Shown here: in pieces, positions 421-53,039 of the stretch
Layout: each line of letters opens with the position of its first letter
Numbering within the stretch: position 1 is the stretch's first letter
From: a phage
NCBI GenBank assembly: GCA_020773975.1
Contig: GCA_020773975.1_3638.1
DNA: 64,000 bases
Direction: 5' to 3' (one strand)
Program-made: the position numbers and the translations under genes
Notes under the pieces: model-generated
Told to the model about the DNA's origin: nothing
What the model saw: the letters and a program-made list of their open reading frames with translations, nothing else
Database searches by the model: none

Positions 421-496
421 GGGAGTGTAGATCAGTTAGTAGATCGCTCGACCGATAATCGAGAGGACGTAGGGGCAGAGCCTACCACTCCCACCA
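421..496 (+). tRNA. tRNA-like, anticodon GAT (Ile) with atypical C33 and non-canonical T-loop
   Basis: Hand fold: acceptor GGGAGTG/CACTCCC, D-stem GATC/GATC, anticodon stem CTCGA/TCGAG loop CCGATAA, T-stem GTAGG/CCTAC but T-loop GGCAGAG, encoded CCA. Confidence 0.4.
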
Positions 497-501
497 AATA
501 T

Positions 502-576
502 GCATCCATAGTTTAATTGGGAAAACTACAGCCTTCCAAGCTGAAGTCGAGGGTTCGATACCCTCTGGATGCTCCA
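502..576 (+). tRNA. tRNA-Gly (anticodon TCC)
   Basis: Hand fold: acceptor GCATCCA/TGGATGC, anticodon arm CAGCCTTCCAAGCTGA as in bacterial tRNA-Gly(UCC), T-loop GGTTCGATACC, encoded CCA. Confidence 0.75.
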
Positions 577-687
577 GTTAAAAGATGTCAATGAAATCCG
601 CTTGGGTCAACTGAAGACCGTAACAAATTCCATGGTGTTGTGTTTGCGGTCCAACACCAGACATCTTCTATCTATGTACAGGCTTGA

Positions 688-1251
688 GTGCGTATGAGAT
701 ACTTGAAATATTTATCGTGGATTCTGTTAGCACCTCTTGACCCAATTATGTCGGTTCTATGTGTTATTCTGGCTCCTTTTGTTGTTCCGTTCTATAATGA
801 GAAGACAGGGCATCTACCTTATATTTTCAGGTGGATGGAAACATATGATAATCCTATAGATGGTGACAGAGGACACATAGAGAGATGGGAAGAAGTCCGT
901 AAAATAGGAAGTTTTGGTGTTTACCTACAACGAGTTGCTTGGTTGTGGAGAAATAAAGCCTACAATTTTTCCTATCACGTACTTGGACGTGAAATCACAT
1001 CTGTGACAAAGTGGAAAGGAAACATCCATGTAAGCTCTGATGTGGAGGATAATCAACAAGGCTATTTGTTGATGTGGAATGACAATGCGTGGGGTGTATT
1101 CGCGTTTGTCCCGTCTTTTAGATTGTTTGGAAAACAATTTTACTGGCGAATTTATGTCGGTTGGAAACTGAAGAGTGTGGTTCCTGAAGACAGAGCTTTT
1201 TCAAGAGAGAGAGTGATGTTGGCATTTTTCATAAGTCCTTTCCGAAAATAG
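688..1251 (+). CDS. hypothetical Trp-rich protein with hydrophobic N-terminus (187 aa)
   Basis: ORF track; embedded in the tRNA array; N-terminal hydrophobic stretch; no recognisable catalytic motif. Confidence 0.4.
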   Translation: MRMRYLKYLSWILLAPLDPIMSVLCVILAPFVVPFYNEKTGHLPYIFRWMETYDNPIDGDRGHIERWEEVRKIGSFGVYLQRVAWLWRNKAYNFSYHVLGREITSVTKWKGNIHVSSDVEDNQQGYLLMWNDNAWGVFAFVPSFRLFGKQFYWRIYVGWKLKSVVPEDRAFSRERVMLAFFISPFRK

Positions 1252-1257
1252 TTTTTA

Positions 1258-1337
1258 ATGAGAGTAGCGTAACTTCACTGGGTGAAGGCTGGCCTCCAAA
1301 ACCAGTGACTAAGAGGTTCGATTCCTCACTCTCGTGC
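1258..1337 (+). tRNA. tRNA-Trp (anticodon CCA), atypical D-arm, CCA not encoded
   Basis: Hand fold: acceptor ATGAGAG/CTCTCGT, anticodon loop CTCCAAA matching bacterial tRNA-Trp, T-loop TTCGATT; D region is long and forms a CTTCAC/GTGAAG hairpin. Confidence 0.5.
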
Positions 1338-1340
1338 AAA

Positions 1341-1416
1341 AGGGGATTAGCATAGTGGCCTAATGCAACGGGCTTTGACCCCGTGATCGGTTGTTCGAAT
1401 CAACCATCCCCTGCCA
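1341..1416 (+). tRNA. tRNA-Gln (anticodon TTG)
   Basis: Hand fold: acceptor AGGGGAT/ATCCCCT, anticodon stem ACGGG/CCCGT loop CTTTGAC, T-arm GGTTGTTCGAATCAACC, encoded CCA. Confidence 0.7.
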
Positions 1417-1425
1417 AGTTAAAAC

Positions 1426-1515
1426 GGAGAAGCAAATCGATTGGCGACGAAAACACATTGGAAATGTGCTGACTGGTAAAACGGATTGAGAGTTCGATTC
1501 TCTCCTTCTCCGCCA
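1426..1515 (+). tRNA. tRNA-Ser (anticodon GGA), class II
   Basis: Hand fold: acceptor GGAGAAG/CTTCTCC, anticodon loop TTGGAAA, long variable arm, T-arm GAGAG-TTCGATT-CTCTC, G73, encoded CCA. Confidence 0.6.
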
Positions 1516-1536
1516 GTTTTTAATTACTAAGGTATT

Positions 1537-1630
1537 GGAAGATTAACCCTAATTTGGTAAGGGGTCTCCCTGCTGAGGAGATAGTAACCCAGAAATGGGT
1601 GTGACAGTTCGATTCTGTCAGCCTCCTCCA
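1537..1630 (+). tRNA. tRNA-Ser-like (anticodon GCT), class II, acceptor stem imperfect
   Basis: Hand fold: anticodon stem TCTCC/GGAGA loop CTGCTGA, long variable arm, T-arm GACAG-TTCGATT-CTGTC plus CCA; 5' acceptor pairs with two mismatches, so 5' boundary uncertain. Confidence 0.4.
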
Positions 1631-1857
1631 AGTTATCTTTAATGTAGCTTGTTATTCTTACTTTAGCAGAGTAAATCTTCGGCAAGTGGCGGTAACCACT
1701 TTACCGATACCCCAGAGCAGTCCGCTCTTTACTGGCGTAAGTCAAACACTCATGATGGTCATGTAATCGTAATCTATCATTAGTGTGCCCTCCCTAGAGG
1801 GCTGTTGCGTATAGCTAATTATGTGCGAGTAATTAGCTATTTTAAAGATAATTTAAA

Positions 1858-1934
1858 GGATCTGTAGCCAAATGGTTTAAGGCACTCGACTTTTAATCGA
1901 GGGATTGTTAGTTCGAATCTAACCAGATCCACCA
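1858..1934 (+). tRNA. tRNA-Lys (anticodon TTT)
   Basis: Hand fold: acceptor GGATCTG/CAGATCC, anticodon stem CTCGA/TCGAG loop CTTTTAA, T-loop GTTCGAATC, encoded CCA. Confidence 0.75.
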
Positions 1935-1943
1935 AAATATTCT

Positions 1944-2034
1944 GGTTCTTTGACCGAGTGGTCGATGGTGACGGCCTGTTAAGCCGTTGGGAGGAATCTC
2001 CCCACCGAAGGTTCGAATCCTTCAGGAACCGCCA
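1944..2034 (+). tRNA. class II tRNA (Ser/Tyr-like body, long variable arm, G73) with anticodon GTT
   Basis: Hand fold: acceptor GGTTCTT/AGGAACC, Ser-like D-arm ACCGAGTGGTCGATGGT, perfect anticodon stem ACGGC/GCCGT with loop CTGTTAA, variable hairpin GGGAGG..CTCCC, T-arm GAAGGTTCGAATCCTTC, encoded CCA. Confidence 0.55.
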
Positions 2035-2120
2035 ATTCTTGACTTAATCAAGTCACAGATATCACCTAGCCAGCGATACCAGTTAGTAGATTCTGGGACA
2101 ATTAAAATCTACATCTCTCT

Positions 2121-2198
2121 CTGTCCGTAGCGCAGCTTGGGTAGCGCGGGTCACTTGGGATGATCAGGTCGTTGGTTCAAATCCAACCGGACAGACCA
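2121..2198 (+). tRNA. tRNA-Pro (anticodon TGG)
   Basis: Hand fold: acceptor CTGTCCG/CGGACAG, D-arm GCGCAGCTTGGGTAGCGC, anticodon loop CTTGGGA, T-arm GTTGG-TTCAAAT-CCAAC, encoded CCA. Confidence 0.7.
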
Positions 2199-2240
2199 AC
2201 AAACATATACATATCAAAGCAGAAATGTACAGAGGATACC

Positions 2241-2432
2241 ATGTTAACAGTTAAAGTCGTATCTCCAAATGATGAACAAATTTTTTGTGGCAAAATTGTT
2301 GGGTATTGTGCTCATCAAAAGTCTATAGCTATTTCAGGTATTGACCAAAAAGTGTTTTTGTCTGAGGATCAGACAGCTTATGTTATCAATGCCAATGGGA
2401 AAACTATTTCTGTGTATCGTGGAAAACCATAA
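2241..2432 (+). CDS. hypothetical small protein (about 63 aa)
   Basis: ORF track 2160..2432 trimmed to the internal ATG (MLTVKVVSPN) so it no longer overlaps tRNA-Pro. Confidence 0.35.
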   Translation: MLTVKVVSPNDEQIFCGKIVGYCAHQKSIAISGIDQKVFLSEDQTAYVINANGKTISVYRGKP

Positions 2433-2446
2433 CTGTTGATATAAAT

Positions 2447-2523
2447 GGGCGATTGATGGAATTGGTATACATGTCAGGCTTAGAACCTGAATTTTGGGGG
2501 TTCGAGTCCCTCATCGCCTACCA
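2447..2523 (+). tRNA. class I tRNA with anticodon TAG (would read CUA/Leu) and A73
   Basis: Hand fold: acceptor GGGCGAT/ATCGCCT, anticodon stem TCAGG/CCTGA loop CTTAGAA, short variable loop, T-arm GGGGGTTCGAGTCCCTC, encoded CCA. Confidence 0.5.
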
Positions 2524-2528
2524 ATCAT

Positions 2529-2604
2529 GTGACGGTAACTCAGTTGGTAGAGTGCCTTGCTGAAGACTAGGTGGTCACAGGTTCGAACCCTGTCCGTCAC
2601 ACCA
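2529..2604 (+). tRNA. tRNA-Phe (anticodon GAA)
   Basis: Hand fold: acceptor GTGACGG/CCGTCAC, D-arm CTCAGTTGGTAGAG, anticodon loop CTGAAGA, T-arm CACAGGTTCGAACCCTGT, encoded CCA. Confidence 0.65.
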
Positions 2605-2610
2605 AATTAT

Positions 2611-2689
2611 TGCAGAGTGGTGGAAATGGATTTACCATGTTAGGTTCATACCCTGAAGATTGCAGGTTCGACTCCTGCCTCTGCATCCA
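2611..2689 (+). tRNA. tRNA-Met (anticodon CAT; Met or lysidine-Ile)
   Basis: Hand fold: acceptor TGCAGAG/CTCTGCA, anticodon stem TTAGG/CCTGA loop TTCATAC, T-arm GCAGG-TTCGACT-CCTGC, encoded CCA. Confidence 0.6.
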
Positions 2690-5494: not shown

Positions 5495-6841
5495 TTGAGT
5501 AAAGTATTTGGACCTGCCAGTCCTAAACAAAAAATGATTTTGGAGAGTAAAGCCCAAATTCTAATAATTGGCGGGGCCGCCGGGTGTTTGTCTAAAGACC
5601 ACGAGGTGTTGACACCATCTGGCTGGATTAAGATATCAGAATGGTCAGGGCAGGACATTCTGCAATATGATAAAGCCACTGGGGAGGCTAAATTTATCCC
5701 TCCTTTAGAGTTTGTTAAACTCCCTTGCGACAAACTTACAAGAATAGAAGGTAATGGCATTTGTCAAGAGCTATCTGACGAACATACTGTGATTTATAAA
5801 CCAGACTATAAATCACAGCCAAGAACACTTTCTTTTTCTGAAGTGGCAGAAAGACATAACAACTCTGTTAAAAAAGGTTGGACAGGTAAGTTCATAACTA
5901 CATTTAACTATGATGGGCCTGGGATAGACATGACAGAAGGGGAATTAAGGCTTCAGGTTGCTGTCATGGCTGATGGGAGAGTTGTTAAAGAAGGGAAAGA
6001 TAATTATACACAGATGCGCTTTGCTAAAAAGCGTAAATATGACCGCTTAATCGAACTTTGTAAAAAGTTTGGATTAAGATATGAAGACAGAGGATCAAAA
6101 CCCAGTGAAAGATATACCACTGGGGAACAGTACGAGGTCATTGTATGGCCTAAATATCCTGATAAAAAATTTACAGAGAAATACTATCAGTGTTCAAATG
6201 AACAACTGGAGATAATACTTGATGAGATTTTTCATTGGGATGGTTCTTTTTGTAAGCCATATGGCGGTAAAACACATAACAGCTTTACAGGTAGATATTT
6301 TACTGCTCATAAGACGAACGCTGATTTTATTCAGTTTGTAGGATCTTCTCTTGGTTATAATACCACCATAAGCCATGACACAAGAAGTGGAAAGGACAGT
6401 TATACTGTTAATATTATGGCTAGAGGAAAAGGATTAAGGTCACTGGCTAATAAAGACAGAAAAGCTGAGTTTAAAGCGTTTACACCTACGGATGGGTTTA
6501 AATACTGCTTTGTAACACAAACAGGTTTCTTTGTTACCAGACTGGAAGATTGTGTGGTTGTCACTGGGAATAGTGGAAAATCATATCTCCTACAATTGAT
6601 GCCGCTTGCTTATGTCGATGACCCGCAGACAGCATGTATAATGTTTCGTAGGACAACACCTCAATTGACAGGTGCAGGTGGACTTTTTGATACAGCGAAA
6701 AGTATTTATTTGCAACTCGATAAGGAATGGAAGCCGAAGTTCAGGGAGAAAGCTCTGGAAGCAATTTTCCCATCTGGGGCAAAGGTGTTGTGGAGACACA
6801 TGGAGTATGAGAATAACAAATTAGATCATCAGGGTGAATAG
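5495..6841 (+). CDS. terL: terminase large subunit, N-terminal coding segment (P-loop ATPase) containing an in-frame intein
   Basis: TTG start after GGAGG RBS; Walker A split as IIGGAAG-[intein]-SGKSY; lies directly upstream of portal; ORF runs to a stop inside intron-like sequence, real exon end probably 6817-6829. Confidence 0.7.
   Translation: MSKVFGPASPKQKMILESKAQILIIGGAAGCLSKDHEVLTPSGWIKISEWSGQDILQYDKATGEAKFIPPLEFVKLPCDKLTRIEGNGICQELSDEHTVIYKPDYKSQPRTLSFSEVAERHNNSVKKGWTGKFITTFNYDGPGIDMTEGELRLQVAVMADGRVVKEGKDNYTQMRFAKKRKYDRLIELCKKFGLRYEDRGSKPSERYTTGEQYEVIVWPKYPDKKFTEKYYQCSNEQLEIILDEIFHWDGSFCKPYGGKTHNSFTGRYFTAHKTNADFIQFVGSSLGYNTTISHDTRSGKDSYTVNIMARGKGLRSLANKDRKAEFKAFTPTDGFKYCFVTQTGFFVTRLEDCVVVTGNSGKSYLLQLMPLAYVDDPQTACIMFRRTTPQLTGAGGLFDTAKSIYLQLDKEWKPKFREKALEAIFPSGAKVLWRHMEYENNKLDHQGE
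5585..6571 (+). mobile_element. intein (329 aa) with LAGLIDADG-type endonuclease motifs in the terminase P-loop
   Basis: Starts with Cys (CLSKDHEVLTPSGW), ends VVVTGN followed by Ser; internal LQVAVMADG and LDEIFHWDG motifs; removal restores GGAAGSGKS. Confidence 0.7.
6809..6817 (+). repeat. 9-bp direct repeat GAGAATAAC (copy 1) flanking the terminase intervening region
   Basis: Identical 9-mer at 8778-8786; joining the copies puts exon 1 and the C-terminal segment in frame (MEYENN-PDYLAF). Confidence 0.5.
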
Positions 6842-7537
6842 CTTGCCCTTCGTGCCTATAACGGTGGAACTCCCTATGGGAAAATACCGTGCCACAGAAT
6901 ATGGAAATATAAACTCTGGGTGTAACGACTATCTCCGATGAGTGTAGGAGAGTAGAATCACAAGCGATTGGTGATCCAAACGGCACGCCAAGGATGGAAG
7001 ATATAGTCTGTTCCACATGGAAACATGTGGCGGGTGTTTTAGCACACCGCCTCAGTGTAGCGAACTGAGGGGACAATAAGTTGCAATATACCTTTATAGG
7101 TTTCGATGAGGGTAGAACAGTGTGCTCTCTATAAACCCCTTTAATTGACGGGTAACTCTTTATACATATCACCACTAAGTAGGTATGGTAACATATTTAT
7201 GGTCAACGGTAATGACGTTGAGTATAGTAACAGTGTGAATGTTTAGACAATCCGCAGCGAAGCATCCCTACGGGATGAACGTTCAACGACTATCGCTTAC
7301 GGGCGTTAGGGCCAAGCGGTGAGGGAAACCTCCGGTTGATTATCAACCGCCGAAACAGGGGGGTGTGTAATAACACACAAGATATAGTCTGATCTGCATG
7401 GTGACATGCAGCAGCACGTAGTGGTGCGGGATAAGAGTAGCGATCTTATCTGAACAAAAACGACACAATTCACATGGTCACAGATAGATTATCTGATATC
7501 TCGTCTACGTTCAAACTCTAAATATCCGAGCAGGATG
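6830..7537 (+). mobile_element. group I intron-like intervening sequence(s) in terminase, no ORF
   Basis: Conserved core elements: P-like AATTGACGGG (7143), Q AATCCGCAGC (7250), R GTTCAACGACTATC (7282), S AAGATATAGTCTGATC (7379); a second R/S-like pair at about 6926 and 7003. Confidence 0.55.
7381..7430 (+). repeat. 50-nt intron core block (S element to P9 region), copy 1
   Basis: GATATAGTCTGATCTGCATGGTGACATGCAGCAGCACGTAGTGGTGCGGG; second copy at 8674-8723 with 2 mismatches. Confidence 0.7.
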
Positions 7538-7773
7538 GTTATCTCTTGTAACCCTGATCCAGATCATAAGATCAAGGAGTTGATTTCTTGGTATTTAGAT
7601 GATGAGGGATATCCTATACCTGAACGCGATGGGGTGATTAGATGGTTTATAAGACGTGACGGGGAGTTTATCTGGGGTGAATCAGAGCAAGAATTAATTG
7701 AAAAGTATTGGGATGGCAAGGATGAGAAAAGAAAGCCTAAACCACTTTCATTTTCCTTCATTTCCGCAACCAT
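7538..7773 (+). CDS. possible internal terminase exon (or co-converted exon fragment), about 79 codons
   Basis: Open frame between intron-like regions (VISCNPDPDHKIKELISWYLDDEG...FISAT); LISWYLDDE resembles a Walker B strand; begins right after an intron-terminal ATG and ends at CCAT before a GTGG guide-like sequence; frame relation to downstream segment unresolved. Confidence 0.3.
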
Positions 7774-7902
7774 TAAAAGAATAGTGGCTTCATGCAGTAA
7801 TGCATGTCGAATAACTTCGTTAATTGCTGGGAAACCCTTTGTATAAGGGCAATCAGCAGCTATAATTACTTTTCCGAAACTGTAGTAGGGAGAATGTTTG
7901 AG

Positions 7903-8589
7903 ATGAAAAATTTAGGATTTTTAGGGTATTCCCATTATTGTGCGACGTATGATGGAAGAATTTATAGTTTGTATTCCCACAAATTTTTACATCCTAATGT
8001 CCATAAGAAAACTGGCTATGCAATGTTAACGTTGTGTGAGGATGGTAAAAAGTTTCAAGTTCTTGTCCATAGGGTTATTGCTTTTGCTTTTGTCGAGAAT
8101 GATAGCCCTGATACAAAAACTCAAGTGAACCATTTAGATGGAAACAAACTTAATAACGCAGCGTGGAATCTTGAGTGGACAACTGCAAAGGAAAACACAC
8201 ATCACGCACATGAAATAGGGCTTAAGAAGTCTTATGTAAACAGTTACAGGCCTCTTGATGATAACACTGCCCTTGAGATATGCAGATTACTTGAGCAGGG
8301 TGCTAGAGTAAAGGATATCAGTGAGATGTTTGGTATTGGGCAGACTGTGGTTAGTAGTATCAAAGCTGGGAGAGTCTACCCAGACATTTCTAAAGAGTTT
8401 AATTTCAGGATGGTTCCTTCTTCCAACAGAATTAGTGAATCCAAAGTTATAGGGATATGTGAAGATCTGAGAGACGGTATCCTAAGCATTAATAAGATAT
8501 CTAAAAAATGGGGTGTTAGTTTTAATCTTGTTAGAAGAATAAAAGATAGAAAAACTTACATCTATATCTCAAACAACTATGAATGGTAA
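7903..8589 (+). CDS. intron-encoded HNH homing endonuclease
   Basis: ATG 9 nt after GGGAGA (alternative ATG at 7894); N-terminal GYSHY..YDGRIYS NUMOD-like motif, HNH signature VNHLDGNKLNN...NLEW...ENTHHAH, C-terminal helix-turn-helix-like repeats. Confidence 0.65.
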   Translation: MKNLGFLGYSHYCATYDGRIYSLYSHKFLHPNVHKKTGYAMLTLCEDGKKFQVLVHRVIAFAFVENDSPDTKTQVNHLDGNKLNNAAWNLEWTTAKENTHHAHEIGLKKSYVNSYRPLDDNTALEICRLLEQGARVKDISEMFGIGQTVVSSIKAGRVYPDISKEFNFRMVPSSNRISESKVIGICEDLRDGILSINKISKKWGVSFNLVRRIKDRKTYIYISNNYEW

Positions 8590-8673
8590 TGTAGTTCAAC
8601 GACTATCCCGCAAGGGAGTAGATCGCAAGCTAATGGCGTTCGAAAAGCGAAGCACCCATTATGTGTGGGTGGT

Positions 8674-8723
8674 GATATAGTCTACTCTGCATGGTGACAT
8701 GCAGCAGCACGTAGTGGTGCGGG
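8674..8723 (+). repeat. 50-nt intron core block, copy 2
   Basis: GATATAGTCTACTCTGCATGGTGACATGCAGCAGCACGTAGTGGTGCGGG; near-identical to 7381-7430. Confidence 0.7.
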
Positions 8724-8771
8724 GGTTGGCGTTGCGTCCAACCTTGAATACAAGGATTCGATAATCCTCCC

Positions 8772-9557
8772 ATGCTGGAGAATAACCCAGATTATCTAGC
8801 ATTCCTTGAAGGTCTTCCAGAGGTAGAAAAAGCCCAGTTGTTGCATGGGAACTGGAACGCAAGACCTGAAGGGGCAAACTATTTCCAGAGATCTTATTTA
8901 AAAGAGGTTCCCTGCTTACCTCTCGGTGTTGTATCTGTTCGCCCGTATGATAAAGCAGGTACAGAAAGAACATCTGGAAACAGATATCCTGACTTTACAG
9001 CATCTGTTAAGGTAAGTAAAGACAATGATGGCTTTTACTACTTGTCTGGTGATTATTGTCCTGAATTTTTTGATGATGGTAGATATTCGACTCAAACGCA
9101 GGGAAGATTCTGTAAAAAAGCTGGGGAACGTGATGTTATCATTAAGAAACAGGCTTATTTTGATGGTGATGATGTCACTATAATTTTCAGTGTTGACCCA
9201 GGACAAGCAGGAATAAGTGAATTTTTAACAAGCTCTCGTGAACTAATAGCGGAAGGGTTTACAGTAGAAAAAGATCCTACACCAAGCAATAAATCAAAAT
9301 TAACACGATTCACACCGTTTGCAAAACTTGCTCAAGCAGGTATGGTGAGAATAGTTCGTGATAGTTTTGATCCTAAAACTTATGAAGCCCTTATGACAGA
9401 GCTTGAAAAGTTCAATGGGGAAAGGAGTACGACGACAAGAAAAGACGATTGGGTCGACGCCATTTCTTCTGGGATAAATTATCTTGAAAAAGAAGAAATA
9501 GTCAAACCTGTTGTTATTCCAAAAATTGTAGCTCCTACCTTGTATAAAAGAATATAA
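8772..9557 (+). CDS. terL: terminase large subunit, C-terminal coding segment (nuclease domain)
   Basis: ORF track; VTIIFSVDPGQAG and DDWVDAISSG resemble terminase nuclease acidic motifs; in frame with exon 1 across the GAGAATAAC repeats; real 5' boundary probably 8775-8790. Confidence 0.6.
   Translation: MLENNPDYLAFLEGLPEVEKAQLLHGNWNARPEGANYFQRSYLKEVPCLPLGVVSVRPYDKAGTERTSGNRYPDFTASVKVSKDNDGFYYLSGDYCPEFFDDGRYSTQTQGRFCKKAGERDVIIKKQAYFDGDDVTIIFSVDPGQAGISEFLTSSRELIAEGFTVEKDPTPSNKSKLTRFTPFAKLAQAGMVRIVRDSFDPKTYEALMTELEKFNGERSTTTRKDDWVDAISSGINYLEKEEIVKPVVIPKIVAPTLYKRI
8778..8786 (+). repeat. 9-bp direct repeat GAGAATAAC (copy 2)
   Basis: Identical to 6809-6817; see copy 1. Confidence 0.5.
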
Positions 9558-46466: not shown

Positions 46467-46838
46467 TTAATTAGCCAATTCAGCATCCAACGACATTATA
46501 TACTCAGGTAGCTTTCGGATGTTCTCATACAGCACAATCTCTCCGTGTGTCAATGGCCTGATTTCTTTATCCACACCAACATTATTATGGTAATCCCAAT
46601 CGGCATCAACATGGACGAAGACCAGTGTTCCTCTATTGCCAGCCTTAGCGTCCTTTCTTACGATAATCTCTCCGTCTATTGAAGGTAGGCATCTTTTGAA
46701 GAATTTGTTTAAAAGTTTTTGTTGAATTGCTTCTGCCAAGATCATTTTGTCTTGGCTATCTACGATTCTTTTGATTTCAGAGTCGTTTACTTCAACATCA
46801 ATAAGTTGTGTTGTTGTCTGGGTTCCTTTTACTTTCAT
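46467..46838 (-). CDS. hypothetical protein (123 aa)
   Basis: ORF track. Confidence 0.3.
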   Translation of the reverse strand: MKVKGTQTTTQLIDVEVNDSEIKRIVDSQDKMILAEAIQQKLLNKFFKRCLPSIDGEIIVRKDAKAGNRGTLVFVHVDADWDYHNNVGVDKEIRPLTHGEIVLYENIRKLPEYIMSLDAELAN

Positions 46839-46883
46839 GCCACCTCTTCTTTTAAAAAGGTGCTTTTCAGCACCTTACCATTT

Positions 46884-47183
46884 TTAGTGAGAATCTGCCC
46901 ATGTGTATCCACAAAGATATTCTCCTGTAATTAAAACTGGAAGCCCCATTATCTTAGATGCTTTTTCTACACATTTTGTTGCAAGCTCTCCTACTGGGCA
47001 ATGCAGTATCCTGTATTTCCCATACACATCAGGTTCAACAATAACTCTACCCGCTTTCACATAATGTCCGTCGAAACGATGACCTTTTTCAAGCATCATA
47101 TCTACATAGCTTTGTGCCGCCTCTAAGTTAGAATGCTCCGTTATTGATTTAAATCTTTCCGGTACTTGTACCTGTATCTCATC
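46884..47183 (-). CDS. DNA polymerase (family A), exon 2 (motif C to C-terminus)
   Basis: Begins DEIQVQV (motif C HDE completed by exon 1 His) and ends ...GYTWADSH like Pol I-type C-termini. Confidence 0.65.
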   Translation of the reverse strand, partial: DEIQVQVPERFKSITEHSNLEAAQSYVDMMLEKGHRFDGHYVKAGRVIVEPDVYGKYRILHCPVGELATKCVEKASKIMGLPVLITGEYLCGYTWADSH

Positions 47184-47492
47184 CATCAGTTCAGAGAGTT
47201 CGTTACGCTCTCCCGCACCATTACGTGCATAGCCACAAGATTTCTCCTGTGGGTCGGACTATCTCATCCTCCTGATATTAAGGAGGCCTCCCGTTTCGAC
47301 CGCACTTGCTGGCCTACTCTACTCGCTTTCACATTACTAGTGTGCTTTCGATAGTCTCTGAACGTTCATCCCATAGGGATGCTTCGCTGCGGATTAGCAT
47401 ATTGAACTTTTGCTACTTTTACGTATAAAAGCCAGCTTAGCCTTCCCGTCAATTAGAGAGGTTTTCGACATGCATTACTGCATGAAGCCACA
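47184..47492 (-). mobile_element. group I intron (about 309 nt, no ORF) in the DNA polymerase gene
   Basis: On coding strand: exon ends CCAT, GTGG guide-like sequence 10 nt in, P AATTGACGGGAA, Q AATCCGCAGC, R GTTCAGAGACTATC, S GAGATAGTCC, terminal G before GATGAG; splicing restores VIYYH-DEIQV. Confidence 0.6.
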
Positions 47493-49913
47493 ATGTTATT
47501 TATGGTAGTAGATAACCCTCCTGACACCTTGGTCGTACCATCCCCATTTCACCAATTCCCAATGGAACAGGACTCCCATGAGGTCAAACAATGAAGCACC
47601 ACCGTTTTGTTGGTAAGCATTCAGCAGAGAATGTTTAGAACGAGTCCAAATTTTACGCCCGTCCATGCCTGGAATATAGCGTCTCCCATTTGCCTCCCAG
47701 AATTTTTCCAACCACTCCCTACGCATTTTCAACCCGAAGTTACTATCCCAGAATGCATCTATTACAGCCTGTGCTCTATTAAGGGGGATACCCAGCATTG
47801 CGGCTATCTTAGGAGCTTGTGCTCCATACATAATTCCATACGTAACCCCCTTTCCTCCAGAGCGTGTTACCTCCTTTCCTGCTGCTATTGTGTATGCTCT
47901 TGCGTTTCGTTCATGGGCATCCTCTTCCATCATGATACGTAAATACTCACCACCATCAAACTCAAAAGCCCCTGCCGCTGCAATCATACCTTCTAAGTTA
48001 GATCCATCACAACCCATCAGGTAGTAGCCTTCAGGGACTGTCCAAAGACCCCGCATTTCTTTTCCCAACAAAACCTTCGGATCAGGCTTGGGCATGTTTG
48101 CGCAAACAGTATGCTTGCACCTGCCCGTGTTAGTGATTCCAGAAAAACGTGCTGGAAGTTTTCCGTCAATGTCTAAACGAGGGTGATTTAATAACCCTGT
48201 ATCCGTCTTATCCTCATCCATTGGGTCTAAAACAGATCGCCTGTTACGAAGTGATAGCCACTTAACAATCTGTTTTGCCATATGCACATCAATTTTCTCC
48301 AAATTTGGACACAGATGCCCAAAATTATCTTTTAATTGAGGAGATGTCGGTAACTGGCGTGCTTTACGCCGAAATTTCTTAAATATCTCTGAATAACCCC
48401 TTTCAGATGCATGGCGATGGTCAAACTTACGCTCTGAAATGTTGAATTTCTCATCTGAATCATTAAGGTAGTCAAGAATAAGAGATTTATACTCAGACTC
48501 TGCCAACTCTTCTATGTACTTCTTAACTAGTACATCAATTTCAGAATCTTCACGAGTCTTTTTAAATTGATCCTTAGTAACATCTTTTACGCGCCACAGT
48601 GTAGGTTTCCAACCAGCATCTTTGATCAAATATTTTTTAATATCATCCTGATTAGAGATTTTCATTGGAACCATTAAATCTGGCATTTTTCTGTTTCGAA
48701 GGTCTTCTTTAGCCTTCTCTAGAAGATCCGGCGGTAAAGGTTCGAGTGTGTTCTCTTTGGTTCGCTGGGAACGAATGAAATCACCGTATAAAGCCGGATC
48801 TTCAATGCCATTCTGGATGCAATATCTCTCCCCTGCTGCACTTACATCCCCATTGCTCTTAAAAGCTGTTTTTGGTGGAGCTTTAAACTCCAGAGCTTCC
48901 CTGTTAACAGGATAGCCAAGTTTATATTCCAACCAATTCCACCCATGATGAGATATATTACCCGCTGTGTCAAAAGGGTTAGCTGGGAATTTTGGTTGTT
49001 GAGATTTCGTCATCTCTTTTTTTGGAAGAAGTGGTTCTACCTCTTCTTCAATTTCTCGCATCATCTTATCTATGCGATCTCTTAATTTTTCTGCCTCCTC
49101 CCGATTAAAGTATACGCCTTGTATTTCTTGCTCTATCATCAAATAGTCTGTGAGCATTCTCCTACGTAATGCATTTTTCCAATTAATCTGGTGCATCCCG
49201 TGAGGTTTATCAGTGTACATAAACTGCTTGTCATCAGGCCATCGCGTACCATTTGACTCATCAATAAGAGCTTTCCACACAAGTTCGTTAATGATAACGT
49301 CTTCCCACACACGGTTTACATATTCCCACAATGGCTGATTACGCCAATCATCAATCTGCACTTTCTTGTTTGCTACACGATAACCCCATGCCAATAAGCC
49401 GTGTGGCCCAACCCTGTCACGTTTTCCTGTTACAGGGTTCAATACAGAATCTGGGCAGCCATTAGGCAATGGGCGATCTGGGTAAAGAACACGACTCATT
49501 GAAAGAGTGTCGTAAAGATTTACCTGTTTATTACCTATCGTCCCCATACATTTTAGGTCTTTGAACATGTCATATTCAATCCCAGAAAGTTTTTTCCACA
49601 GACGTAAATCATAGCCGAACAGGTTATGTATTGCTATCCCTCTTGGCTCGGTCTGCAACCAAGAGTAAAAATCATCATAAGAAAGGATACGTAAATTAAC
49701 ACCTTCTTTGCTGCGTGCAAAATTAACTGCACTCTGGTATTCCTTGTGAGCAGGATCGAGAAACAACACCCAGTTATTTACAGCATATTCTTTAAAAAGT
49801 GTGCAGTGATATTTAGTTGCCTCTTCTAATAATCCGTCAGCTTCGTTATCTCCGACAAAAAGCCCTTTCATACTCCTCCTATTCAAGATGGGCTTGACTG
49901 TATCGTCGCCCAT
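47493..49913 (-). CDS. DNA polymerase (family A), exon 1
   Basis: Pol I-like motif B RSGGKGVTYGIMYG and pre-motif C NAYQQNGGASLFDLMGVLF...RRVIYYH; ORF track stop lies within the intron. Confidence 0.7.
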
Positions 49914-50066: not shown

Positions 50067-53039
50067 TCAAAATGGAGAATCGCTATCTAAATCTTCAGGT
50101 TGCTCAATCACAACAGCAGGTTCTTGTTGAGGAACAGAAACAGCAATTTTCCCCACAGGTGTTTCAAGTTCCAGACTTTGAATCATTGATTTAGGTCTTA
50201 GCATTACCTCCCCGTTGAGTTTAAACATATTGTCTTCCCACACCCATCCTGACGCATCAGAAAACTGACCATTATCATCCATAATCAGGGTATCCGCTAT
50301 GCCTAATTTTTTGTGTGGACGGTTTTTCAAAACAACACTACGAATACGCCCACGAGATCGGTCAGGGAGTTCTTCAGGCTCGACACCTAAGACAACCCAC
50401 GATAACTGTTCGAGTGCTGCACTATTTCCTGTGACAAAAATATGTCCGTTGCGGCGTGCCACCCACATACCGGATGGTAATGTAAAGCAATACTTGCGAC
50501 CATCTGGGGAAGGTACACGTTTAATAGAAGATTTATTTTTCCCTCCTTTACGTATATGCATATACTTTGTGGCACAAACTCTTACTACATACAGAGGTTT
50601 GTGATCATATTTACCATCAAACGCACCATTGCCATTTTTTACAACAGACACAGACGTTCTATGCCCACAAGCACTGTAAGCAAATTGTAGGAAATCTGCC
50701 TCAAATTTGTTAATGGTTGATACCCTGTTTCTGTTTACAGAATCACCATCCCAATACATGACTTCATCACAGATAATCTCCAACTCGTGCTGTTTAAGAT
50801 TAAACCATTCCTTTGTCACCCCTTTATACCCACAAGGGGCTTTAAATTGGTACTCTGTTCTGCCTTCATGCTTCCCGTGCAAATCAAAACTCTTGTAAGG
50901 AGTGTTCGTCTTCTTCAGTAGCATCTCAAGGCGTTGTTTCTTACGTTCTTTTTTGATGCGTACAGCTACCCTTCCCGTTGATTCAGTAAGAACCGTCCCA
51001 TCAGCATTTACAGCTATCTGTAAACGTAGTTGATCATCAGTTAACCCTAATGAACCATCACATCCAGTGGTGAATGTAGTAGGTATTTTACCACGCATAC
51101 CTGATCGTTTATTGGTATGGTCATGAACAACCTCCTGCATAGTTTTCATACGAAAAATATCAGGCGTTCGATCGTTTACATACACAACACGATGTTCATC
51201 GCTCAACATCATGTCTACAACATGGCTATTAGAAAGATGCCACATTTCATTACAAGGTAGATTAATGTACGCCTCGGGATTTACGAAGGTCATTACACCA
51301 TTTTTATCGTGTTGTGCAACCAAATCTCCTTCTACGTATTCATCAATACGTTTCCAGCCTTGCGGGGTTAAGAACTCTGTGCTTGCATCAACACAACCAC
51401 GGAGATCCTCTTTCCGCACAGGATACCAAAACGGTAACAAATTACCTTCTTTATCTTTCGGAATTTGTATATCAACACGCTTCATATGACTGATACTGAG
51501 GATAAACACGTCATATTTTTTGCAGAAGGCAGCCAATTCCGTCATGATGTTATCTAAATCTCTTCGCTCGTTATCGGATTTTAATCCTGATATCACCATC
51601 GATAAGTGATCTAAGATAATCCATCTACACCCATCAAGGAAAACCATCTGTTTCAATTTTTGTAGTAATTGGTCAGTTGGTATTGAACCAAAGTGATCGA
51701 AAATTTTAACCTTATCTTCGGCAATCCATCGTTGGTGTATAGCTAAGTGCTGCTCATCGGTAAGGAATTGTTCTGGGTCTGCAACAAATGCTTTCGGGTC
51801 AATCTTTAGCTCCTCAGCATATAAACTGTTTACAGACTCCTCCTCATCCTCCTCTAGACGAATAATTGCAATTTTCTCGTTCTCTTTCCAACCGTCTAAT
51901 CGGGGAATATCCATGTTACGGAGGTACTCGATAATTGCATACTCAATCTTTCTTGAGAAAGTTGATTTCCCAGCTCCAGATGGGCCTGTCAGTGTCCACA
52001 ATTCTCCTGTTCGTGGGCCTCTTGTTAGTTCATACAAACGAGGAAAGCACGGCAACGGAACGCCATCTTTTTTCTTTTTACGGAGATTTTCAATAGATAT
52101 TCTCTCCAACCCAATCAATTTGTCTGGAACATATTTATCCTGCGCTTTAGCAAACATATTCCAGATATCCATCCATTTACCTTTTTTGTAAATATCCCGG
52201 ATATCTTTAACACCATTTGGGTCATTGCGCTCATTTGGGTATCGTGCAACATAGATGTTGTCAGACAGTAAAAAACCTGCGACATCATCTGTGGCTTCCT
52301 TACCTTTCTTAATTCTGTGTTCTTTTTCCCTTGCTGTGGCTTCATCATTGTCTAAGCCAAGGACAATCTTTTCATATTCCCTGATAAACTTTTCGTTGTG
52401 GGCGAATGTATCCACAGCATTGGCTGTACCACAGTTCAACCCGATAAAAGGTAATGTCGGGCAATTAGAAACCTCTTCCCCATCCTGAATTGCTTTGATG
52501 CCTTTTAAAGCATTGTTTGCCCACTCACGTACTGAACGTGACGTGTTAGGATTGCTATGAAGGAATTTAATATACTCAAACCCAGCTTGCCAGCCAGCCG
52601 TTACATCACCTTCCCCCTCAACAATAAAGATCTGTTTTTTACCAGATCCCATAGAGGCCTCATGTTGACCAAAAAATTGAGAGGAAGCCTTTACTGTGCC
52701 AACAACAGAGAAATGCCCCTTTTTCTCTTTCGGAACAGTCCAGTCTCGTTTTTTGTACCCTGTCAATTTCCCATATTTGTCATAATATGGAAGATATGTT
52801 GCCACCACTGTAGTACCGTCTTTCAAATCTGTTGCAGATCTGATCTTGAAGTACTTAGCTGCATCTAAACTAATATCCATTTGGGGGACAGCCAAGATCC
52901 TTGTACTATCTAGGACAGACTCTACAGTTTCTTCTTCTTTTTTCTGATAATTCACTTTACCACCACTTTTTGTAGGTCGGAATGCTTTTGGGTTCTCACC
53001 TTCAAAGTATGCACCAGCCCCCCATTTTGTCATCTTCAT
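50067..53039 (-). CDS. primase-helicase (TOPRIM primase plus DnaB-like helicase) containing an intein
   Basis: TOPRIM IFIVEGEGDVTAGW, Walker A TGPSGAGKST, Walker B WIILDHLSMV, motif H4 split as DLRG-[intein]-SAALEQ. Confidence 0.7.
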   Translation of the reverse strand: MKMTKWGAGAYFEGENPKAFRPTKSGGKVNYQKKEEETVESVLDSTRILAVPQMDISLDAAKYFKIRSATDLKDGTTVVATYLPYYDKYGKLTGYKKRDWTVPKEKKGHFSVVGTVKASSQFFGQHEASMGSGKKQIFIVEGEGDVTAGWQAGFEYIKFLHSNPNTSRSVREWANNALKGIKAIQDGEEVSNCPTLPFIGLNCGTANAVDTFAHNEKFIREYEKIVLGLDNDEATAREKEHRIKKGKEATDDVAGFLLSDNIYVARYPNERNDPNGVKDIRDIYKKGKWMDIWNMFAKAQDKYVPDKLIGLERISIENLRKKKKDGVPLPCFPRLYELTRGPRTGELWTLTGPSGAGKSTFSRKIEYAIIEYLRNMDIPRLDGWKENEKIAIIRLEEDEEESVNSLYAEELKIDPKAFVADPEQFLTDEQHLAIHQRWIAEDKVKIFDHFGSIPTDQLLQKLKQMVFLDGCRWIILDHLSMVISGLKSDNERRDLDNIMTELAAFCKKYDVFILSISHMKRVDIQIPKDKEGNLLPFWYPVRKEDLRGCVDASTEFLTPQGWKRIDEYVEGDLVAQHDKNGVMTFVNPEAYINLPCNEMWHLSNSHVVDMMLSDEHRVVYVNDRTPDIFRMKTMQEVVHDHTNKRSGMRGKIPTTFTTGCDGSLGLTDDQLRLQIAVNADGTVLTESTGRVAVRIKKERKKQRLEMLLKKTNTPYKSFDLHGKHEGRTEYQFKAPCGYKGVTKEWFNLKQHELEIICDEVMYWDGDSVNRNRVSTINKFEADFLQFAYSACGHRTSVSVVKNGNGAFDGKYDHKPLYVVRVCATKYMHIRKGGKNKSSIKRVPSPDGRKYCFTLPSGMWVARRNGHIFVTGNSAALEQLSWVVLGVEPEELPDRSRGRIRSVVLKNRPHKKLGIADTLIMDDNGQFSDASGWVWEDNMFKLNGEVMLRPKSMIQSLELETPVGKIAVSVPQQEPAVVIEQPEDLDSDSPF
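50424..51395 (-). mobile_element. intein (324 aa) with LAGLIDADG-type motifs in the helicase domain
   Basis: Starts CVDASTEFLTPQGW, ends HIFVTGN followed by Ser; internal LQIAVNADG and ICDEVMYWDG; end blocks closely match the terminase intein. Confidence 0.7.

Follow-up and report, generated by a model that had tools for sequence, protein, structure and literature searches.

An ORF-less group I intron at the HDE motif of a family A DNA polymerase gene in an rV5-like phage

Introns in phage DNA polymerase genes

In Pectobacterium phage CB7 (Vequintavirinae, Certrevirus) two HNH-bearing introns interrupt the DNA polymerase gene; their splicing was demonstrated in vivo by RT-PCR and Sanger sequencing, and an HNH insertion of the same phage, CB7_245, was reported not to splice (PMC7344957). 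On checking the CB7 sequence we found that the intron between CB7_51 and CB7_49 occupies a YYH|DEYQ site identical to that of the intron described below, and that it starts AAGUAACAUUGUGG and ends AAACUUUUG, like its CR9 homologue. In the genome paper of rV5 the terminase gene is the only one reported to have introns, and the polymerase is given as a 775-aa protein. This protein corresponds to exon 1 only of the split gene considered here.

More distant phages also carry introns in polymerase genes of this family. Motif C of E. coli Pol I is formed by H881-D882-E883. PMC3428280, citing Bonocora & Shub 2004, places the polymerase introns of the T7-like coliphages PhiI and W31 at E. coli Pol I site 881 and describes them as IA2 introns with P7.1/P7.2 and an HNH gene in P6a. 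Going by that description, they resemble the present intron in interrupting a family A polymerase gene, in falling at a site that is the His of HDE and in belonging to subgroup IA2; moreover, their HNH gene sits in the same loop that carries HNH in the relatives of our intron. Unlike it, they reside in podovirus genomes and encode an endonuclease (I-TslI in W31). Given site 881 and this position of motif C, the PhiI/W31 site would be the same as ours. Conserved regions of family A polymerase genes are likewise interrupted by self-splicing IA2 introns in the phages SPO1, SP82, Bastille and Pf-WMP3, but these contain an HNH gene and are inserted elsewhere, in the fingers at Pol I site 674.

Here we describe an intron in a phage contig (GCA_020773975.1_3638.1), analysed as a stretch of 64,000 nucleotides that we refer to as the window. 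The intron is an ORF-less allele of the one that is common at the HDE site in rV5-like phages. The polymerase exons of the window are 95.9% identical to those of Escherichia phages 18-1-2, 19-1-2, 24-2-1, vB_EcoM_TH18 and Av-05, and the source phage is an rV5-like myophage of the Vequintavirinae, closest to TH18 and to Av-05, the latter being the type of Avunavirus. Compared with TH18, identity is 97–98% in exon 1 and 95% in exon 2 against 86% in the intron. The G+C content of the intron is 46%, that of the exons 42%.

Exons, splice junction and reading frame

Two minus-strand ORFs encode the pieces of the polymerase. The upstream ORF (49913..47496, 805 codons) ends ...GVRRVIYYHK*, where the final K and the stop are there because the intron bases AAA TAA supply them, and the downstream ORF (47186..46884, 100 codons) reads MDEIQVQV...GYTWADSH. 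The preliminary description of this DNA had recognised the same split family A polymerase, with a frame running through RRVIYYH and resuming at DEIQVQV. Its interval of 309 nt holds for the gap between stop and ATG (47495..47187), but the intron itself is 318 nt long (47501..47184). It had also put the intron immediately before motif C, whereas it lies inside that motif, where it separates the His codon of HDE from the codon for the catalytic Asp.

Alone, the upstream ORF covers no more of the Pfam DNA_pol_A profile than positions 114–278 of 381, and the downstream 100-codon ORF has no Pfam match. Joining 47502 to 47183 in silico yielded a 903-aa protein that matches DNA_pol_A from 114 to 344 (+66 profile positions) with 38.1 bits, against a gathering score of 34.3. 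This product aligns without gaps across the junction both to T7 DNA polymerase (VIYYHDEIQVQV versus AWVHDEIQVGC; in the alignment, query ...rrviyyHDEIQVqv and T7 ...aymawvHDEIQVgc) and to Taq polymerase, in the latter case through residue 814. With the Pfam match and with HDE aligned to the catalytic residues of T7 and Taq, the split gene is one family A (T7-type) DNA polymerase gene. The predicted spliced junction is ...TACTACCAT|GATGAGATA..., and the predicted tryptic peptide spanning it is VIYYHDEIQVQVPER.

The junction is also seen in alleles from related phages. In nimi (Vequintavirus), CR8 (Certrevirus) and SSBI34, which are intron-less, ...RRIIYYH DEYQL... is contiguous, and in Iguana and Ro1 the polymerase CDS is annotated as a single uninterrupted frame. 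Excision would therefore recreate the HDE motif, as had been proposed: the joined product aligns to T7 and Taq and the intron-less alleles read YYH|DE. In silico splicing gave the same junction in 12/12 intron-bearing alleles. The junction reads CAT|GATGA in every intron-bearing allele, while CAC or GAC is also used by intron-less ones; such a codon bias would follow from constraints that P1 (U at -1) and P10 (GAUG) place on the exon sequence.

The intron starts at 47501, opening AAAUAACAUUGUGG..., because the Rfam alignment sets the U.G wobble of P1, which marks the 5′ splice site, at U47502. At the other end, the terminal G falls at 47184, as required by the reading frame and by the conserved junction sequence ...CUGAUG|GAUGAG; a G as the last intron base had indeed been noted before. 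The U.G pair and the terminal G, together with the frame and the intron-less alleles, thus fix both intron boundaries. A 3′ splice site at G 47187, which would give H-M-D-E, was rejected since intron-less alleles show HDE directly and ...NUG|GAUGA is conserved. The features are collected in Table 1.

Table 1. Exons, intron and structural elements of the split polymerase gene, in window coordinates
Feature	Position	Strand	Details and basis
DNA polymerase exon 1	47502..49913	-	804 codons, ATG 49913; last codon CAT, His of motif C HDE; Pfam DNA_pol_A
DNA polymerase exon 2	46884..47183	-	99 codons + stop; starts GAT GAG, Asp-Glu of HDE
Group I intron, 318 nt, subgroup IA2-type, no ORF >25 aa	47184..47501	-	Rfam RF00028, frame, intron-less alleles, covariation
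In-frame TAA, two codons into intron	47496..47498	-	Sequence; would stop translation of unspliced RNA
Terminal guanosine (omega-G), 3′ splice site	47184..47184	-	...NUG|GAUGA kept in 12/12 homologous introns examined and in CB7
P1, exon CCAU + intron AA with internal guide UUGUGG (47493..47488)	47488..47505	-	Rfam alignment; 6/6 pairs invariant, n=11
P10 part of guide, CAUU with first four exon-2 bases GAUG (47183..47180)	47492..47495	-	Tentative
P2 hairpin	47469..47484	-	6/6 pairs compensatory
P3 5′ strand CCUCUC, partner 47292..47287 (GGGAGG)	47456..47461	-	2 pairs compensatory, 100% paired
P4-P5 domain and P5 extension (P and Q elements)	47388..47451	-	Alignment and covariation
P6/P6a short hairpin	47362..47387	-	Alignment of ORF-less and HNH-bearing introns; P6a covariation
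P7 5′ strand (R, GAGACUA), partner 47261..47256 (S, UAGUCC)	47352..47358	-	6 pairs, 2 compensatory, 100% paired
P7.1 (47351..47323) and P7.2 (47314..47298), linker GUAGAGUA	47298..47351	-	Covariation analysis
P8 hairpin	47268..47286	-	4/6 pairs compensatory
P9, P9.1, P9.2 hairpins	47193..47252	-	Compensatory pairs 5/7, 1/4 and 3/6 respectively

Ribozyme fold and the case for splicing

An Rfam scan of the whole window, a check that the preliminary description had itself suggested, returned Intron_gpI (RF00028) on the minus strand at 47511..47236. The match is full-length (model positions 1–253 of 253) and scores 81.2 bits (E = 4.6e-19) where the gathering score is 50 bits. The insert combines a score above this threshold with the U.G wobble in P1, a terminal G whose joining restores the frame and a covarying P3–P9 core. 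The 318-nt insert is a group I intron, and its match is far beyond chance. In the Rfam alignment the P and Q elements correspond to the 5′ and 3′ strands of P4 (AAUUGACGGGAA and AAUCCGCAGC) and the R and S elements to those of P7 (GUUCAGAGACUA and GAGAUAGUCC), in agreement with the ordered P, Q, R and S recognised earlier from the letters. The GTGG proposed at the same time as a guide lies at intron nt 11–14 and pairs with the exon-terminal CCAU, with the U.G wobble at the splice site.

Homologues of the intron were collected from the genomes of 11 further phages (TH18, Av-05, JEP1, FV3, JLBYU08, O157 typing phage 5, GEC_vB_MG, CR9, Csp-D17, K412 and qdvp001). The fold alignment (n=11) comprises the window copy and ten of the others, Csp-D17 being omitted, with 8 nt of each exon; HNH-bearing introns were entered without the inner part of their P6 insert. 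Using the Rfam alignment as a guide, we drew by hand a structure of 71 pairs comprising P1, P2, P3, P4, P5, P6, P6a, P7, P7.1, P7.2, P8, P9, P9.1 and P9.2, in which P7 forms a pseudoknot with P3; P5a and P5b come solely from the single-sequence fold.

Standard pairing occurs in 98.6% of cells (71 pairs, 11 introns), and falls to 34–41% when the 3′ partners are slid by 1–3 columns. Both sides have changed in 30 of the 71 pairs, and none of 500 shuffles matched the observed covariation score. Compensatory base changes occur in every variable helix, with P2, P6a, P8, P9 and P9.2 being rich in them, and P7 has two compensatory pairs, one changed from G-C to A-U (TH18/Av-05) and the other from U-A to C-G (O157 typing phage 5/GEC_vB_MG). 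P1 and P10 are without covariation support because both are invariant; P10 has 97.7% of cells paired, versus 28–56% when slid, and zero covariation. The single-sequence fold of the window intron has z = -2.9 relative to shuffles. RNAalifold alone recovered every helix except P7. In its structure the S element (GUCCG) is instead bound to the 3′ splice region, a pairing that we rejected as an artefact because RNAalifold cannot draw the P3/P7 pseudoknot; P7 as drawn is 100% paired.

Extra helices P7.1 and P7.2 between P7 and P3′, with a G-U-A link, are the criterion for IA2 (PMC3428280). The window intron has both helices in this position, linked by GUAGAGUA, and it therefore falls into subgroup IA2.

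We consider it very likely that this is a functional self-splicing IA2 intron whose removal restores the HDE catalytic motif of a family A polymerase, and we infer that splicing takes place in the phage of the window. Under the model that we propose, the transcript would fold into the group I ribozyme and an external guanosine would attack after U47502, which the guide UUGUGG would hold in P1. Exon 1, once released, would then attack after the terminal G47184, with P10 (GAUG/CAUU) aligning exon 2, and the joining of CAT|GAT would give an mRNA for the 903-aa polymerase. Unspliced RNA would yield only an inactive 805-aa product, owing to the TAA two codons into the intron.

Conceivably, the gene might instead make two polypeptides, of 805 aa and of 100 aa (from ATG 47186), that assemble as in the split NrdA of Aeromonas phage Aeh1, the insert then being a non-splicing relic. 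There is indeed an in-frame ATG directly before exon 2: the last three intron bases are ATG (GTG or TTG in relatives), all of them possible starts in frame with exon 2. Moreover, the pieces are entered as individual CDSs in many database records, and non-splicing HNH insertions are known in the subfamily, CB7_245 being an example. However, this arrangement would divide the HDE motif between two chains, separating its His from the catalytic Asp-Glu. Inspection of the sequence found no Shine-Dalgarno before ATG 47186, which moreover lies just 3′ of the P9.2 stem. The full ribozyme core shows compensatory changes and is kept by purifying selection, which would make no sense if the intron did not splice, and the homologous intron of CB7 does splice (PMC7344957). 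We consider separate polypeptides to be very improbable.

We give even less credence to a loss of splicing activity in the phage of the window, by which the polymerase would be a pseudogene (arising at the sequencing stage or from a decaying element) and replication would proceed via another polymerase. In favour of this, no other segment has diverged as far from TH18 as the intron (86% identity against 95–98% for exons), and the intron has no endonuclease gene to maintain it. Yet every helix is intact in the window sequence, as in a family where nearly all cells are paired, and both exons are open and conserved. The differences from the TH18 intron are concentrated in the peripheral stems P5 extension, P8 and P9.2, where they are compensatory and pairing is preserved. 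The strong Rfam match, together with a TAA two codons inside the insert, led us to reject an intein or a frameshift.

Splicing of a group I intron thus stays our preferred account of the split gene, and its main value lies in annotation. The polymerase should be entered as a single 903-aa CDS, joined across an annotated intron, where many related GenBank records give two or three 'DNA polymerase' or 'hypothetical' fragments instead.

Same-site introns and the absent endonuclease gene

Dozens of Vequintavirinae genomes in the databases have a homologous intron at the identical site, and a sensitive nucleotide search found related sequence in 178 phage records. The same insertion point, YH|DE, is used in Av-05, TH18, rV5/FV3, JEP1, JLBYU08, O157 typing phage 5, GEC_vB_MG, CR9, Csp-D17 and CB7, and also in Vibrio phages K412 and qdvp001, whose subfamily is unassigned. 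The ribozyme core of the window intron is homologous to these same-site introns, with 74–86% identity and the same helices. Because the same intron is already common at the same site in rV5-like phages, we regard the window intron as ordinary, and it raises no new mechanistic question. As a sequence it is distinct: no deposited copy exceeds 86% identity to it, and it has P5-extension and P8 sequences of its own. A scan of IMG/VR with the 5′ junction pattern returned only 8 loci, 0 of which were identical to the window, and a search of the literature found no description of an ORF-less polymerase intron in Vequintavirus or Avunavirus. Av-05 and TH18 differ from the window in having a second, upstream HNH insertion in motif B.

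The intron had been called ORF-less from the outset, and the longest ATG ORF within its 318 nt is 25 aa, with no homing endonuclease gene. In Av-05, FV3, GEC_vB_MG, CR9 and Csp-D17 an HNH gene replaces the P6a hairpin; the P6 region is 16 nt in the window, as against ~500 nt encoding the HNH enzyme there in the relatives. The intron-encoded endonuclease that characterises a mobile (homing) group I intron is absent from the window copy, which, having no HNH gene, therefore cannot home on its own. It may have been inherited vertically, or may have moved by recombination or with endonucleases supplied in trans.

A short P6 hairpin, CAUCC-N-GGAUG, is common to the ORF-less introns of the window, TH18 (near Avunavirus Av-05), JEP1 and JLBYU08 (Vequintavirus), while the P6 stems of HNH-bearing copies are unrelated to it. 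Moreover, the window copy is a mosaic in which P6, P7.1 and P9 are TH18-like and the P5 extension and P8 are unique. It is possible, though we hold it doubtful, that the ORF-less form is itself a circulating entity. If so, endonuclease-free introns would be exchanged between co-infecting phages, by recombination or by endonucleases acting in trans, and their retention would be explained by the occupied site being immune to cleavage. Alternatively, each ORF-less copy may be an independent decay product of an HNH-bearing intron.

In either case, the window adds one more variant at a polymorphic site, which may be empty, occupied by an ORF-less intron (~250–330 nt) or occupied by an HNH-bearing one (~690–840 nt). 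Such an intron size series could be a natural system in which to study the gain and loss of homing endonuclease genes. Individually, the ORF-less introns measure ~253 nt in Vibrio phages K412 and qdvp001, 276 nt in O157 typing phage 5 and 317–329 nt in the window, TH18, JEP1 and JLBYU08, and those with an HNH endonuclease gene measure 687–843 nt in Av-05, FV3, GEC_vB_MG, CR9, Csp-D17 and CB7.

Insertions and flanks of the polymerase gene

The polymerase gene of the window is unbroken at motif B (GVTYG/IMYGA), whereas in its relatives Av-05 and TH18 this site is occupied by an HNH-containing insertion of 735 nt, and the number of polymerase insertions therefore varies between one and two within a single lineage. 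Moreover, the annotated exon 1 of the JEP1 polymerase comprises 1132 aa compared with 804 in the window, suggesting that the JEP1 gene holds a further in-frame insertion, which may be an intein. Directly 3′ of the polymerase stop codon lies a G+C-rich hairpin with a T run, a putative terminator, which the scan flagged on the plus strand only. In some relatives a free-standing HNH endonuclease gene overlaps the polymerase 3′ end; the gene found there in Av-05 and Iguana is absent from the window, and the next ORF has no Pfam match.

Features of the window and of related phages (L002, L003 and L015 are the records of Av-05, JEP1 and Iguana)
Feature	Record	Position	Strand	Basis
tRNA gene cluster (n=10)	window	421-2686	+	Rfam tRNA matches
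Terminase N-terminal ORF	window	5495-6841	+	
Second group I intron	window	7086-7411	+	Rfam, 67.9 bits
Terminase piece	window	7535-7846	+	
HNH_3 endonuclease ORF	window	7804-8589	+	Pfam
Terminase piece, Terminase_6C	window	8772-9557	+	Pfam
Next ORF after polymerase	window	46467-46838		
Hairpin (AAGGUGCU-GAAA-AGCACCUU) and T run	window	46857-46876		
Empty insertion site, motif B	window	~47835/47836	-	
Primase/helicase gene	window	50067-53039	-	
Primase/helicase insert, 323 aa, residues 550-872 (CVDAS...HIFVTGN/S)	window	50424-51392	-	
Free-standing HNH endonuclease gene	L002	5761-6399		
Free-standing HNH endonuclease gene	L015	1772-2314		
JEP1 polymerase exon 1	L003	608-4006		annotation

An intein in the primase/helicase

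The insert in the primase/helicase is an intein, located within the DnaB-like helicase domain. The Av-05 orthologue lacks it, with flanks 99% identical to those of the window, and TH18 matches residues 527-990, insert included, at only ~50% identity.

The large-terminase region

The Rfam scan of the window placed a second group I intron in the large-terminase region, within 5495-9557 on the plus strand. Here, two terminase pieces flank the HNH_3 ORF, a layout that agrees with the terminase of rV5, reported in three segments (PMC3606486). A Pfam search of the terminase N-terminal ORF gave no match; its translation reads GGAAG/CLSKDHEV...VVVTGN/SGKS, which, judged by sequence, looks like an intein interrupting the Walker A motif.
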